A stretch of DNA of 64,000 bases from a virus (IMGVR_UViG_3300031772_004865:1-64000), one strand, 5' to 3'. Positions 9,215-20,520 are shown, numbered from the stretch's first letter. Numbers and translations are program-made. Notes: generated from the sequence alone by a model not told the origin.

Positions 9215-9651
9215 TATATTATTTTTCCCAAAATTAATAGACTAACTCCAATTATTATACTTTCCCAATAAGATACAGGCAAAAATAACCAAAACCGTTT
9301 GTGCCAATAAATTCTCCCTTTTTTAAAATTCCTCAATCCATAATGTTTTGATTCCACAAACCATAAAAAATCTTCTATTATCCAATACCAAAAGAATAAT
9401 CCCATTAAAGTAAGTTCTTTTTTTAAAGTAAAACTTATAAATAAAAATGGACTGTGGAATAACATTAAAAACATAAGAAGCATGTAAAAATGATACCCAG
9501 TTAATGGTTTATTAATAAGTAGGTTAATTAGACGATTATTTATTGTCCAACAAGGAAATCTTAAACCCCACCCCATTTTTCCTTCTGACATTAATTCCAT
9601 TTTAGCATGTAAGGTTGCTAATAAAATTAAATAAAGAATAATTATAATCAT
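9214..9651 (-). CDS. Membrane protein
   Basis: Several TM segments, EDFLWF motif. Confidence 0.6.
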   Translation of the reverse strand: MIIIILYLILLATLHAKMELMSEGKMGWGLRFPCWTINNRLINLLINKPLTGYHFYMLLMFLMLFHSPFLFISFTLKKELTLMGLFFWYWIIEDFLWFVESKHYGLRNFKKGRIYWHKRFWLFLPVSYWESIIIGVSLLILGKII

Positions 9652-10277
9652 TTTTTTATTTTTGGATAAGGTAATGAAGTTAAAAAAGAAAGTAGTTCTT
9701 TTTTTCTTTTTTTAGATTTACAAATTAATAAAATATATTTGTGTTTTCCTTGCATTAATACTTTTTCAGCTCCTTGAGATAGCAATTGTTTTACATGCTG
9801 TTTTTCATTACAATTTTTTCGTCTACCAAGACCTCTACGAGTAATTAGTTGCCCATTATATAAATATCTTGTTTCTGAATTAGTTTTTCCTAAATAAATA
9901 AAATTCAATGCCTGATAAATATAACCTGCATGAGAAAAATTAGCATCAGCATAACTTAATATTACTTCATAATTAGAATTTAATTTTAACCATTTGAAAG
10001 ATTGTGATAAACAATAAGATAAAATGTTTCTTTCTAATTTTTTAATCATAACAACTCTACTTAATTCGATTCCAATGTGTTGAGTTTCATTATGCCAAAT
10101 TGAAGTAAATGAAAATTGATTTGCTGGAATAGAATAAATAGCACATCCTATTAATTCATTATCATAATAAAAACCGAATCTATATTTTATTGCTTGGGGA
10201 ATTTTATGAGAATAATGATAAGTTTCTATTAAATTTTTTGCTATATTTTTATCAAAATTAATGATAATTTTAATCAT
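9648..10277 (-). CDS. Mom-like (GNAT-fold) DNA base modification enzyme, paralog without nested tRNA
   Basis: HYSH, ELSR, LSYAD...HAGYIYQALNFIYLG, KHKY, LPYPK. Confidence 0.8.
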   Translation of the reverse strand: MIKIIINFDKNIAKNLIETYHYSHKIPQAIKYRFGFYYDNELIGCAIYSIPANQFSFTSIWHNETQHIGIELSRVVMIKKLERNILSYCLSQSFKWLKLNSNYEVILSYADANFSHAGYIYQALNFIYLGKTNSETRYLYNGQLITRRGLGRRKNCNEKQHVKQLLSQGAEKVLMQGKHKYILLICKSKKRKKELLSFLTSLPYPKIKK

Positions 10278-16360: not shown

Positions 16361-17200
16361 TTATTGTGCTTTTCCTTTTTTGTTTATATTTAATCCTTTA
16401 ATTTCGTAAGAAGCATCATAATTAATATTATCTCCTTTTGGATAGGGCAATATTTTCCATTTAAGTGCTGCTCTCATTTCTTTCTTTTGTTTATAATTGC
16501 CAAGAAACATCAAATATCGGTGTTTTGGTGTAACTTTTATCGGTTCATAACCATTTTTTATAGCATTTTCTATACTTCCAGTACCTAATCTATTAAATAT
16601 TACTTTCCTATGATACATTTTTCCATCTTTTCTAAATTCAATATCCCCACAACCCATTCCAGTATATAACCAATTAAGTGCCTGATAAATATAACCATGA
16701 TGTCCTTGTCCACTATCAGAATAAGAAATAACTGTTATTGGTTGGGGCAATAACTTTAAACAAGAACTAACAAAAAAAGACAAAGTGTTTTTTGGTAATA
16801 ATTCGTTTACAATTAATCGGTTAAGTTCTATACACCGATAATTTCCTAGTAAATTATTTAAAGAATTATTTGCACTCATTCCAAAGGTACAAACTCCTTG
16901 CAAAATATTATTTTTATTATAAAGACCATAAGAATAAATGATAATAGCAGGAATTCTATGTGCATAGTGTTTATTTAAAAACCACTCATAAGTTAATTTC
17001 TTATCAATATTTTTAACAGAAAAATCTAATTTATTAAAATCATATACTTCTTCTTTACGTTCTTTTTTAATTGGAGCGGAGTTAGCGACTTGCACGCTAC
17101 TCTCGGAACTGGAAGTTCCGCATGTCTTTTTCGACACTTCCCCTGCGAATTTAGTTTTAAGTTTTAATAATTCTTCATCACTTAATTTAGATAAATCCAT
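16361..17200 (-). CDS. Mom-like (GNAT-fold) DNA modification enzyme whose N-terminal extension overlaps a tRNA-like element
   Basis: KHYAHR, GVCTFG, ELNRL, ISYSDSGQGHHGYIYQALNWLYTG, PKHRY, LPYPKGDN; ATG overlaps polB stop. Confidence 0.85.
   Translation of the reverse strand: MDLSKLSDEELLKLKTKFAGEVSKKTCGTSSSESSVQVANSAPIKKERKEEVYDFNKLDFSVKNIDKKLTYEWFLNKHYAHRIPAIIIYSYGLYNKNNILQGVCTFGMSANNSLNNLLGNYRCIELNRLIVNELLPKNTLSFFVSSCLKLLPQPITVISYSDSGQGHHGYIYQALNWLYTGMGCGDIEFRKDGKMYHRKVIFNRLGTGSIENAIKNGYEPIKVTPKHRYLMFLGNYKQKKEMRAALKWKILPYPKGDNINYDASYEIKGLNINKKGKAQ
17072..17146 (-). tRNA. Non-canonical tRNA-Gly(UCC)-like cloverleaf nested in the Mom-like CDS
   Basis: GCAGGGG AA GTGT-CGAAAAAG-ACAT G CGGAA-CT TCC AG-TTCCG AGAG TAGCG-TGCAAGT-CGCTA ACTCCGC T CCA; 75 nt, perfect anticodon and T stems, U73, CCA. 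Confidence 0.85.
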
Positions 17201-20200
17201 TAAATTAATCCTCTTCTTTTAAGTTCTTCATTAATTTCTTTTTCGGTAAGATTATCCTGTTTCTTTGTTTTCTTTACTTTAATTTCTTTAATCAATCCCA
17301 AATCCCAGCCTAATGCTTCAAAAATATTCTCACACTTTCCTATAATAGTCTTATCTATCATTTTCTTCCAATTTATATTTTTTACATGGTCAAATTGTTC
17401 TTCGTTATACGCAAGTACATTTTTATCTATTTCTTTTTCACTTGACTTTTCTTCTTTTTCTCCAGTATCTTTATTCTTCATACTTCTTGTTGCTCTACGA
17501 ATTGCTTTTCCAAAAGGTTCTACATACAAATAATAAAATGTATCTCCTGCAACTTTATTAAATCCACATAATTCTTTTGAATATTCTAATGCTCTGGTAA
17601 AAATAGGAGGAGATTTATAAACTGTAGTATTACTTATTTTACAAGGGAATCCAATTTCTGTAATAGATACGGTCTTAATCGCTTCTTTTTGTGAAACGAT
17701 AAATTCTACAATCGCCTCTTGTGATTCATTATCGAGTATTTTATCTATTAATTTAGTTTGAAATTCTTGCATAAATTTACTGCTATCTTTTCTTTTTGCC
17801 TCAATTCCTTTTACTTCTATCTTTAATTTATTATCTTTGGTTCTTAATCTTCCTTTATAATGACAAAGTGCTACAATCAAAATCTGTTCATATTTCCCTT
17901 CATAATCGAATTCAATTCCTGTTTTTTCTTTATTATATTTTTCTTTTGCCCATTGTTGAACTAATTGATTACATAATTCTAAAGGATTTTCTTTTGCTAT
18001 TACCATAACTGAATCGGTATCCAAATAAATTACTTTTACACTACGCTTTCCTAATTCAATTTCAATGTAGTGTAACAAATCTCTAACTATTGAAGTAATC
18101 GCACTTGCTATATTTACATTATAAAGTCTAAAAACTTTTAATGCAGTTACTCCAAATAATGAATTCACTAATGCTTTTACTGCATCGTATTTCATTTGGA
18201 GGTCTTTTGCTTCAGGAGTTTCGGGGTCTAATGATTTAAGTTGTTTCTTTAAATAATCTTTTTTGATTATTAACTTCCTGGCTAATGTAGGTAATAAAGC
18301 ATTTGAATTTTGTTTAAAATAAACAGGATACTTTACTTCATTAGTTTCTCGGTCAGTAATATCGATTTTCAATTCATTTTTATTAATGGTTAAATTAGCA
18401 ATATCTAAACAAAAATCTATAATCGCCATTGGATAGGCAGAATTTCCAGAAATAAATACTTTCCCTTTTCTTCTCATAATTACAAAACCATTTTTAACGG
18501 TTGGACACCATACTATACCAGAATATAATACTTTCTTTTTTTGCGGAGAATATAAATTAGTATAATGTTCATTATTAAAATAAACATTTTTTCTTCCATC
18601 TTCTTGGGTAGAATATCCTAATAATACTAATAAATATTGAAATCTATCTCTTGCTAATTTATCTTTAGCATTGTAATTATTTTTGTTCTTATCTCCATCA
18701 CCTTTCATTAATTCTTTAAATAAAATATTTAATTGTCTAGTAGATAGTTCTTTTAACATCCATAAGGGAATAACTTTATAATTATCTTCTAACTGGATGT
18801 AAGTTGAATAAAGCCATTTTAAATTCCAATCTAACTCTCCTTTTCTAATTCCTTTTCTATCATATTTAGAAACATTCCATTTCAATTGTTTAAATAATAA
18901 ATCTATTTCCTTACAAAATACTGGATTGGCTTTAGAACTTTGACTAATATGATAAATATTACTTTTTACTCTACTATTGCCAAGTTCATTGTGTCCTTCT
19001 GTAATTATCCAAGCATGGATTTTTAATAATTCATCGGAAATAGGATAGTCTTTATTTCTTTTAAAGTTTGCAGAAAGAGGTAAAATAGTATGATATGTAT
19101 GAAAATCTTTAGCAAATGCGATTTGCCAAGAATCTTTTTTAGCTTTTTTATGATTATTATTAACAGTATATTTGTATAGAACTTTATGATTCCAAGTTAA
19201 TAATTGTTTAGTTTTACTATTTTCTAAACTATACATTTCCAAAATTTTAACTTTTTTAATATTTAAATATAGCATTTGTTGAAATTCAATTAAATTTCTT
19301 TCTACACTAAAGGTTGCTAATTCTTCTTTTTCTTGTAACTCATTATATTTTTTCCATCCATCTATAGAAAGAATTTCTGTATCTTCAGAATAGCATCCTA
19401 AATCAAGTTTATATAAATTTTCAAATCTTCCAGTATCACATTTTCTATAGGCTCCTTCGAACTCAATTTCTTCAATAAAATCTTCTCCATAATGTTTGGA
19501 AGGAAGTACTATTCCTTTTGATTTAGCTTCTGATAATAACATCATATCTAATACTTTCGAATTCCAAACAATATCTTCCCAAAGACATTTTCCCATTCTA
19601 CGAATTTCATCATAATAAGGGATAATCTTTTTTTCTTTCTCAATTCCAACCATTTTCTTGATGTCTTCTATGTTCTTCTCTTTTATTTCTTCAGTAATTT
19701 GACTAAAATCTGCTTTTTTATTTAAAGGAGTATTTAAGTATTTATGAGCAATAGAATCCAAAGCATAAGATACTTCTCCTTTATAAATTTTCTTAAATAA
19801 ATCCAAATAATCTAATATACTTATTCCTGTAGGATAAGGAATCTCGTCTTCTTTCCTACCGTATCTCATCTTACTTATTGGAGAAATTAATTCTGCTAAT
19901 TCTAAATTCCATAATCTTTTTATCCGAGCAGCCAAATAAGGATAATCAAATTGGACAAAATTCCAACCTAAAATAAGGTCGGGTTGAGTATCTTTAATAT
20001 AACGAATTGCATTTTTTAATAAATCATCTTCAGCCATTTCTAATTTATCTTGTTTGTAATCCAATTTTTCAAATATTAAATCTTCAAGATAATCTTTAAT
20101 AAACCAATTTCGGATGGTTTTTTCTAATGAATTATAAATAGAAATTGAAGTAATTGTTTTATCGGGATTAAGATAAGAAGGCAATTCTTTTGTTTGAATT

Positions 20201-20520
20201 TCAATATCAATAAATAAATATTTAGTTGGAGAAGGAAGAATTTCACTTACCTTATCAATCATGTAACGTTTTGGATAAATAACATCTGCCTCATAAGAAG
20301 TATCTGTTTTCCGTCTTTTTATTTCTCCAGGTTCTCTGCAAGTAATTTTCGATACTTTTTTTCCGTCGATTGTTTGATAAATTCCTTTCGGGTCCTCTTC
20401 ATAAAAATAAGGTTTAAAAATAGTATCCTGCATAATAGTAAGAGAACCATCCTTCTGTCTATTAAAAAGATATATCTTATTTCCTATATTGGCTATATTT
20501 TTTAAAGGATAATTAAGCAT
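17200..20520 (-). CDS. polB: Family B DNA polymerase (intein-containing)
   Basis: Exo DIE, GWN...FD; motif A DLG/SAYP split by intein; KALVNSLFG; YLDTDS. Confidence 0.95.
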   Translation of the reverse strand: MLNYPLKNIANIGNKIYLFNRQKDGSLTIMQDTIFKPYFYEEDPKGIYQTIDGKKVSKITCREPGEIKRRKTDTSYEADVIYPKRYMIDKVSEILPSPTKYLFIDIEIQTKELPSYLNPDKTITSISIYNSLEKTIRNWFIKDYLEDLIFEKLDYKQDKLEMAEDDLLKNAIRYIKDTQPDLILGWNFVQFDYPYLAARIKRLWNLELAELISPISKMRYGRKEDEIPYPTGISILDYLDLFKKIYKGEVSYALDSIAHKYLNTPLNKKADFSQITEEIKEKNIEDIKKMVGIEKEKKIIPYYDEIRRMGKCLWEDIVWNSKVLDMMLLSEAKSKGIVLPSKHYGEDFIEEIEFEGAYRKCDTGRFENLYKLDLGCYSEDTEILSIDGWKKYNELQEKEELATFSVERNLIEFQQMLYLNIKKVKILEMYSLENSKTKQLLTWNHKVLYKYTVNNNHKKAKKDSWQIAFAKDFHTYHTILPLSANFKRNKDYPISDELLKIHAWIITEGHNELGNSRVKSNIYHISQSSKANPVFCKEIDLLFKQLKWNVSKYDRKGIRKGELDWNLKWLYSTYIQLEDNYKVIPLWMLKELSTRQLNILFKELMKGDGDKNKNNYNAKDKLARDRFQYLLVLLGYSTQEDGRKNVYFNNEHYTNLYSPQKKKVLYSGIVWCPTVKNGFVIMRRKGKVFISGNSAYPMAIIDFCLDIANLTINKNELKIDITDRETNEVKYPVYFKQNSNALLPTLARKLIIKKDYLKKQLKSLDPETPEAKDLQMKYDAVKALVNSLFGVTALKVFRLYNVNIASAITSIVRDLLHYIEIELGKRSVKVIYLDTDSVMVIAKENPLELCNQLVQQWAKEKYNKEKTGIEFDYEGKYEQILIVALCHYKGRLRTKDNKLKIEVKGIEAKRKDSSKFMQEFQTKLIDKILDNESQEAIVEFIVSQKEAIKTVSITEIGFPCKISNTTVYKSPPIFTRALEYSKELCGFNKVAGDTFYYLYVEPFGKAIRRATRSMKNKDTGEKEEKSSEKEIDKNVLAYNEEQFDHVKNINWKKMIDKTIIGKCENIFEALGWDLGLIKEIKVKKTKKQDNLTEKEINEELKRRGLI
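18442..19395 (-). mobile_element. Intein (318 aa) in PolB motif A with LAGLIDADG-type core
   Basis: Starts CYSEDTEIL, block B LTWNH, ends VWCPTV...ISGN followed by extein Ser; AWIITEG and LMKGDG blocks. Confidence 0.9.

Follow-up and report, generated by a model that had tools for sequence, protein, structure and literature searches.

The window analysed here is the first 64 kb (64,000 nucleotides) of a 77-kb IMG/VR virus record from a sediment phage (IMGVR_UViG_3300031772_004865:1-64000). Within it, an open reading frame (ORF) for a protein of the Mom DNA-modification family carries, in frame and near its 5' end, a 75-nt cloverleaf resembling tRNA-Gly(UCC). This cloverleaf is a real conserved RNA structure, found in nine distinct homologous copies that keep the fold through compensatory changes. 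With modest confidence, we favour the view that the element would serve Mom as a private, non-decoding glycyl carrier because the features read by glycyl-tRNA synthetase (GlyRS) and the CCA end are kept, the features of the tRNA elbow and of decoding are lost, and the enzyme family that is its constant companion consumes Gly-tRNAGly. The host ORF and the parts of the element are as follows.

16361..17200, minus strand: Mom-family ORF, 279 aa.
17072..17146, minus strand: tRNA-Gly(UCC)-like cloverleaf of 75 nt, codons 19-43 of the Mom ORF (AGEVSKKTCGTSSSESSVQVANSAP), nt 55-129.
17140..17146, minus strand: 5' strand of the acceptor stem (G1 C2 A3 G4 G5 G6 G7).
17122..17137, minus strand: D arm with a stem of 4-5 bp and the loop CGAAAAAG, without G18G19.
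17104..17120, minus strand: anticodon arm with a perfect 5-bp stem and the loop C-U-UCC-A-G, the anticodon UCC lying at 17111..17113.
17083..17099, minus strand: T arm with a perfect 5-bp stem and the loop UGCAAGU, which has G at position 55.
17072..17082, minus strand: 3' strand of the acceptor stem (17076..17082), discriminator U (17075) and encoded CCA (17072..17074).

An earlier, sequence-only reading of the same DNA had described codons 19-43 as an exact cloverleaf with 41/75 G+C, and coordinates and composition bear this out. The D stem, perfect anticodon stem with its CU-UCC-AG loop, perfect T stem, U73 and CCA that it named are all present, as are the departures from translational tRNAs that it listed, namely A8, a D loop without GG, a G55 T loop and a mismatched acceptor stem (A3.C, G7.A). 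In the window copy the acceptor positions read G1-C, C2-G, A3.C, G4-C, G5-U, G6-C and G7.A, with A8 and A9 between this stem and the D arm and a variable loop of 4 nt. The G+C fraction of the element (0.55-0.56) stands against a window mean of 0.275 (sd 0.066) and is the top 75-nt peak within the first 55 kb. The maximum of the whole window lies at 60904-61316 (0.67 over 75 nt), where ORFs overlap on both strands and Rfam gives no match. RNAfold of the sense strand (-26.4 kcal/mol, z -2.6) predicts an acceptor-like stem that encloses three hairpins, whereas the opposite strand gives no cloverleaf (z -1.1). A terminator-like prediction at 17104..17120 on the plus strand was rejected as merely the complement of the anticodon hairpin.

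Standard tools do not see this element, and annotation pipelines overlook it completely. ARAGORN finds no tRNA genes in the window, in the other 13 kb of the record, or in related loci from other contigs (handles L004-L007, L009 and L016). With Rfam, the surrounding 600 nt have no tRNA (RF00005) match at E<=10, and no family reaches its gathering score anywhere in the window. RF00005 likewise has no match at E<=1 on seven loci with nested copies, while a canonical tRNA-Gly at the Mom locus L054 scores 54 bits. A blastn search of the 75 nt against GenBank phages returned no match. A covariance model of the family itself (R1) scores the window element at 86.8 bits and finds no other copy in the 77-kb record, of which the element is the sole tRNA-like gene by ARAGORN and R1 together. 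Although ARAGORN and Rfam make no call, the element is a real RNA: nine homologous copies keep the fold via compensatory changes.

The copies were gathered by an N-terminal-peptide scan and by pattern scans of viral and metagenome contigs, and the nine distinct ones were aligned. One pattern scan left the anticodon and CCA free, yet both were present in every true match; the metagenome pattern matches L019 and L026 were rejected as chance matches without a cloverleaf. Pairwise identity among the nine is 51-74/75 nt (68-99%). Standard pairs fill 94.7% of cells in the alignment, compared with 38-55% after a shift of the 3' partners by 1-3 columns, and 12 of the 21 pairs, spread over all four stems, change on both sides. 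The resulting covariation score was reached by none of 500 shuffles. RNAalifold, supplied with no structure, returned the identical cloverleaf together with a covarying Watson-Crick 32-38 pair, which is C-G in six copies, A-U in two and U-A in one.

This covariation is strongest in the anticodon stem, where all five pairs covary and at least six different stems occur, every one fully paired. Three of the five T-stem pairs covary, as does one D-stem pair (12-23, which goes from G-C to A-U in L006). Pairs 3, 4 and 5 of the acceptor stem covary between invariant G1-C and C2-G and a position 7 that is G7.A and unpaired in all nine copies. The third acceptor pair is G-C in five copies, A-U in three and A.C, unpaired, in the window copy only. 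Contigs of four other sediment metagenomes hold variants of the window locus in which anticodon-stem changes come as compensatory triples (17105/17119 + 17106/17118 + 17107/17117, and 17106/17118 + 17107/17117 + 17108/17116). A G>A change at 17078, frequent among these variants, makes the A3.C of the window into A3-U. Both the G-U pairs and the better z-score are confined to the sense strand, for which reason a DNA-level hairpin or cruciform was rejected. An attP copy of a host tRNA gene was rejected as well, since the non-canonical features are common to all copies, which lie in frame and always before Mom-type genes.

The D loop (CGAAAMAG) is invariant except at one A/C position and the T loop (YGCAAGU) except for U or C at its first base; A8A9, U33, C35, C36 and A37 do not vary. 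The anticodon is UCC in all but L025, which has ACC. Element nucleotides G70, C71 and U72 and the CCA are identical in 9/9 copies, synonymous third positions included. The sequence-only reading had proposed testing homologs for a covarying fold, an NCC anticodon and CCA. These nine have all three, and most Mom genes are without the element.

Could the G+C-rich, Ser-rich stretch encode a protein linker with an accidental RNA fold? Of the three frames across the 75 nt, two are open anyway, and the single-sequence z-score is only -2.6. However, 12 covarying pairs are hard to place in such an account, and the 33 variable columns fall evenly on codon positions 1, 2 and 3 (12/11/10), 25 of them in stems. 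The encoded peptide varies between copies (TCGTSSSES, ILLASSEEG, TRPVSNGES, TCPDSIGKS) while the pairing is kept. G+C at third codon positions is 0.52 in the element versus 0.14 in the rest of the Mom gene, and codons rare in this phage are retained (TCG 4%, GTG 7%, GTC 6%, TCC 5.5% and AGC 4.5% of their synonyms). An AlphaFold2 model of the window Mom has a predicted local distance difference test (pLDDT) score below 50 at residues 20-45, with a helix modelled at residues 8-24 and the GNAT domain, confidently modelled, beyond residue 59, so the peptide is predicted to be a disordered linker. By these patterns, selection acts on the RNA rather than on the peptide. A chance fold or pure protein linker has a negligible probability and, on the covariation and the even spread of substitutions over codon positions, is rejected as far as computation goes.

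Ribosomes nevertheless translate through the element, as several observations show, and the dual coding is real. In 11 of 11 genomic instances the element is in frame, with the ORF running on into the downstream domain, which upholds the in-frame nesting first proposed. The same reading had placed the start codon over the polB stop with no in-frame ATG soon after; the two do overlap (TAATG, one A in common) and Met does not recur before residue 108. Between the window element and the Mom domain there is no in-frame ATG, GTG or TTG, and no start codon downstream of the element is conserved among the copies. The 18 codons before the element show protein-level conservation with synonymous changes (TTA/TTG/CTA; Ser AGT/TCT/TCG) in L004-L007. 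A protein start downstream of the element was rejected, as no start codon precedes the Mom domain and the N-terminal peptide is conserved as protein.

One related contig has no start at all at this point. In L016:4184-7400 (minus strand; IMGVR_UViG_3300033148_004210), polB, element and Mom form a single frame of 1074 codons, uninterrupted by any stop or separate start. To go by its sequence, this frame implies a PolB-Mom fusion protein and suggests that Mom may be tethered there to the replisome. The conserved N-terminal helix of the window Mom may have the same tethering role.

The surrounding window is 27.5% G+C and carries nearly all of its genes on the minus strand. The features next to the element, and a second Mom gene, are listed below.

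17147..17200, minus strand: codons 1-18 of the Mom ORF (MDLSKLSDEELLKLKTKF), beginning with the ATG that overlaps the polB stop; a helix is predicted for residues 8-24.
16436..17026, minus strand: Mom (GNAT-fold) catalytic domain, residues 59-255, PF25680, confident AlphaFold model.
17200..20520, minus strand: family-B DNA polymerase gene (PF00136 + PF03104), translationally coupled to mom.
9648..10277, minus strand: second, divergent Mom paralogue (PF25680, E 3e-40).

Residues 59-255 of the ORF match the Pfam Mom family PF25680 with E 1e-35 and 123.7 bits, against a curated cut-off of 27.1, and residues 45-275 match phrog_1384, 'Mom-like DNA modification protein'. A profile of the window Mom family matches Mu Mom (PDB 8bv8) with E 3e-23. 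As regards the Mu catalytic residues R111 and S124, the P-R-N of Mu lies opposite (L)P-K-N of the family in that alignment, with Lys for Arg, and the placement of S124 is uncertain from the chain numbering. The window Mom is a PF25680 member related to Mu Mom by its sequence, and its activity is predicted. Its paralogue at 9648..10277 has at most 36% identity to every other Mom domain compared, and has neither an N-terminal extension nor, in a scan with R1, a tRNA-like element. The polymerase is ~25% identical to T4-type polymerases of cyanophages. Its Pfam matches cover residues 60-257 and 694-1013, and the ~430 unmatched residues between them would fit an intein.

The conserved bases point to recognition by a synthetase. 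The GlyRS identity set, G1-C72, C2-G71, U73, C35 and C36 (Rietmeyer et al., PMC7826273), is unvaried in the nine copies together with the 3' CCA, in agreement with the identity elements that the sequence-only reading had picked out. The copies depart from the canonical set of U8, G18-G19, U54-U55-C56 and a non-Watson-Crick 32-38, with U33 kept; the features lost are U8, the G18/G19-U55/C56 contacts and an open 7-nt anticodon loop. Such a pattern fits an RNA that would need glycylation yet need not, or must not, enter the ribosome.

The chemistry of Mom supplies a purpose for such an RNA. In double-stranded DNA, Mom of phage Mu moves glycine from Gly-tRNAGly onto the N6 of dA (Silva et al., Nat Commun 2026, PMC13219725; preprint 2023), so the donor named in the sequence-only reading is correct for Mu. 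All three E. coli tRNAGly isoacceptors work and mischarged tRNAAla does not, and it has been suggested that Mom reads the acceptor end of tRNAGly (PMC13219725). The published Mu Mom chemistry therefore gives a reason for a glycine tRNA at mom.

It is proposed that the 75 nt would be used twice. As mRNA, they are translated into a 25-residue linker, predicted to be disordered, between the N-terminal helix and the GNAT domain. As RNA, a tRNA-Gly(UCC)-like molecule would be freed from the polB-mom transcript by RNase P cutting at G1 and by 3' trimming back to the encoded CCA. Release would probably be from already translated, decaying messages, because excision removes the mom start codon and, in L016, the polB stop; alternatively, a fraction of transcripts may be processed. 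The host GlyRS would then charge the excised RNA, as is proposed because G1-C72, C2-G71, U73, C35, C36 and CCA are kept. Lacking the G18/G19-U55 elbow, and with A8 and a Watson-Crick 32-38 pair, the product would be a poor ribosome substrate. Once glycylated, it would hand its glycine to Mom for transfer to the N6 of adenine in phage DNA. Excision could also act as feedback on a toxic enzyme. Of the overall interpretation first offered, the conserved fold, the nesting and the GlyRS identity set stand, and the remainder, in which the RNA is processed and charged, evades EF-Tu and the ribosome and is used by Mom, is what we infer from the sequence.

The link between glycine tRNAs and Mom was surveyed in 2 x 80 Mom loci from viral contigs, ~540 kb in all, with R1 and ARAGORN. 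The survey picked up the 86-kb contig L009, which has two tandem Mom paralogues, and three further loci. In L054 a canonical tRNA-Gly(UCC) (the 54-bit Rfam match) ends 3 nt before the Mom ATG. In L187 the last Mom codons contain the start of a tRNA-Gly-like gene, the anticodon loop of which has 8 nt, and L190 has a G55-type tRNA-Gly(UCC) 1.3 kb downstream of Mom. None of the remaining tRNAs in these loci (Gln x2, Met and Arg) is in contact with Mom. The unrelated phage L010, which is G+C-rich, also has an ARAGORN tRNA-Gly(UCC), with the same T loop GUGCAAGUC, ending 8 nt before its Mom ATG. The tRNA-Gly link to Mom is thus specific in kind and rare.

G55-type tRNA-Gly(UCC) genes also occur in large phage or metagenome-assembled genome (MAG) tRNA arrays (L008:4615-4690, L012:2268-2343, L018:11404-11478, L015:8348-8421 and MAG contigs L110-L115). 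These share the T loop (G53-U-G-C-A-A-G-U-C61) and have a D loop without GG, and L111 has a canonical tRNA-Gly(UCC) beside a G55-type copy missed by ARAGORN. As no Mom was found with the arrays that hold such genes, the unusual T loop does not by itself prove a non-ribosomal role. They would suit an ordinary phage tRNA-Gly that aids GGA/GGN translation and is overlapped by the mom ORF, and GGA is the main Gly codon (58%) of this AT-rich phage. However, the nested element goes unrecognised by ARAGORN and Rfam. It combines A8 and G7.A with an absence of elbow pairs, and its anticodon loop is closed by the covarying Watson-Crick 32-38 pair. It is the sole tRNA-like gene in the 77-kb record, and its kind is tied to Mom and DruA-like genes, not arrays. 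An ordinary translational role is therefore very improbable.

Beyond the window gene, the N-terminal peptide and element behave as a module. Mom homologues of ~220 aa mostly lack the first ~58 residues of the window ORF, which few proteins share. The PF25680 domains behind the element belong to at least four subfamilies with mutual identity of only 25-36%, and the module also precedes the PolB-Mom fusion of L016 and one DruA-like domain (L028). Similarity between the window and L004 ends exactly after the CCA, and metagenome contigs diverge below 17072 too. Tandem Mom paralogues of different subfamilies occur in L009:7000-9000 (plus strand; IMGVR_UViG_3300032069_000005, 86 kb). Both have an identical N-terminal peptide and element and the same C-terminal tail (QEKREEDRQTEKQEEER), and by sequence it looks as if the Mom cores have been swapped as cassettes between conserved flanks. 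In a subclade of three loci a 6-bp hairpin with a 5-nt loop, followed by UACCA, lies directly 5' of the element (L024:316-360, plus strand; L025:1781-1825, minus strand; L028:2884-2928, minus strand). Its stem covaries (GACAGG/ACAGGG/GCAGAG) and is inside the reading frame.

Such modularity would suit a signal with no tie to glycine, either a processing or stability element (an RNase P or 3'-end site parting or stabilising polB and mom) or a mere joint for swapping Mom cassettes. The element is placed exactly at the polB-mom junction, related contigs diverge directly past the CCA, and the Mom domains behind it are exchanged between subfamilies. Yet an NCC anticodon, U73 and CCA are conserved without being needed for punctuation, and a cut here takes away the mom start codon. 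Moreover, in the unrelated phages with a tRNA abutting Mom, that tRNA is Gly(UCC) every time, and a pure recombination site would not give RNA-type compensatory changes with G-U pairs. On these grounds a glycine-independent signal or joint is improbable.

The DruA-like domain (PF14236, E 1.5e-15) of L028:1921-2883 (minus strand; metagenome contig Ga0315284_10153703) takes the place of Mom and continues the reading frame of an element that matches the L024 copy exactly. Its AlphaFold model has a pLDDT of 90.6 and its best PDB matches are all GNAT acetyltransferases (Foldseek E 3e-3 to 5e-2), while hhalign of the domain against the Mom alignment was not significant. On these findings, DruA-like enzymes may also be Gly-tRNA users. 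A wider proposal, in which each mom message would be translated and then salvaged to a glycyl-carrier tRNA, with the module also marking other GNAT-like users of Gly-tRNA, notably the L028 DruA-like domain, is rather doubtful.

Several observations weigh against a private glycyl carrier. Excision would cut the sole Mom message, which has no start codon after the element, and in L016 would strip polB of its stop. Mu Mom accepts each of the three host isoacceptors and thus has no need of a private tRNA (PMC13219725). The second Mom paralogue of the window carries no element, any RNA of this kind is present in only ~3% of the 160 sampled Mom loci, and no Mom was found in the fragmentary records with G55-type tRNA-Gly(UCC) arrays. 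From the sequence, the acceptor mismatches A3.C and G7.A might weaken recognition by RNase P or GlyRS. Lastly, the identical copies in L009, one per Mom paralogue, are as compatible with a role in cis as with a carrier acting in trans.

The main rival is accordingly a cis-acting tRNA mimic in the mRNA, bound by Mom, GlyRS or RNase P, which would throttle translation or trigger decay of the message for a toxic enzyme and would resemble the tRNA-like operators of threonyl-tRNA synthetase mRNA. The element is always within the message with no start codon after it, each L009 Mom paralogue has its own identical copy, and recognition of the tRNAGly acceptor end has been proposed for Mom (PMC13219725). 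Mu mom is also known for elaborate translational control, according to a Hattman review cited in PMC13219725. However, C35/C36 and the discriminator, for which a Mom-bound mimic would have no need, are invariant; an internal CCA cannot carry glycine, and the CCA is kept even at synonymous sites. In L010 and L054 the free-standing tRNA-Gly(UCC) genes beside Mom have the look of genuine tRNAs rather than of operators. Both a mimic and a processing signal or joint account for the nesting, but neither accounts for the conservation of C35/C36 and U73 or for free-standing tRNA-Gly beside Mom. A cis-acting role is hence possible but unlikely, and the private glycyl carrier is preferred.

An element of this architecture has been described before. 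In the ssrA islands of Dehalococcoides, a 76-bp tRNA-Gly-like 'pseudo-tRNA' with anticodon DCC lies in the first 150 bp of a mom homologue (McMurdie et al. 2011, PMC3146451). It is conserved and was assigned no function (PMC3146451). The likeness, by description, is a full tRNA-Gly-like cloverleaf within the 5' coding part of a mom homologue and strongly conserved, with 75 nt at ORF nt 55-129 and anticodon UCC (ACC in L025) in the phage family. However, the Dehalococcoides elements are in bacterial integrative islands and were flagged as pseudo-tRNAs by annotation pipelines, whereas the window element comes from an AT-rich sediment phage, lies in a gene coupled to polB, escapes detection by ARAGORN and Rfam, and belongs to a module common to Mom subfamilies and a DruA-like gene. 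It is an unusually degenerate, polB-coupled, modular version of the architecture first seen in 2011. PMC13219725 makes no mention of tRNA-like sequences in mom genes, and a literature search found no paper uniting a mom-embedded tRNA-Gly-like element with the use of Gly-tRNAGly by Mom; the tie between this architecture and Mom chemistry thus appears to be unpublished. Mu, although its Mom is of the same family (PF25680), differs from the window phage in having no tRNA of its own and using any host isoacceptor.

A functional parallel is in staphylococci, whose non-proteogenic tRNAGly(UCC) lack G18, G19 and U55 and bind EF-Tu weakly (PMC4574755, PMC7826273); the likeness in sequence was noted by the sequence-only reading and is matched by the literature (PMC4574755). 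These tRNAs, NP1-NP3, have the UCC anticodon and keep GlyRS identity without G18/G19 and U55, as the window element does. They are glycine donors for FmhB/FemA/FemB, and both systems would be a dedicated pool for a non-ribosomal transferase. Unlike the window element, NP1-NP3 are free-standing chromosomal genes, are restricted to staphylococci, feed cell-wall synthesis and have had their weak EF-Tu binding measured. Going by sequence features, the window element would work like NP1-NP3 but is of a different lineage and no member of that group. tRNA-like structures on longer RNAs are otherwise known from the 3' ends of plant-virus genomes, from mascRNA of MALAT1 and from mitochondrial tRNA punctuation. 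These tRNA-shaped modules are inside longer transcripts and are recognised by tRNA enzymes, but lie outside reading frames. In contrast, the window element lies within a translated frame, and the same gene encodes its presumed client protein.

If the RNA is matured and glycylated, a protein-coding gene would carry in frame the tRNA that its own enzyme consumes, an extreme case of dual coding. A private carrier would add a second natural ribosome-shielded tRNA pool to that of the staphylococcal Fem system, account for a pseudo-tRNA without explanation since 2011, and place a further layer on the newly published tRNA-dependent DNA hypermodification by Mom. Should each message also be salvaged after translation, enzyme and co-substrate RNA would come from the same nucleotides in a fixed ratio, and if the module does mark other users of Gly-tRNA, tRNA-dependent chemistry would be indicated for the DruA family of Druantia defence systems. 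The module itself is a sequence tag for finding more tRNA-dependent nucleic-acid modifiers, of which the DruA-like domain may be an example.

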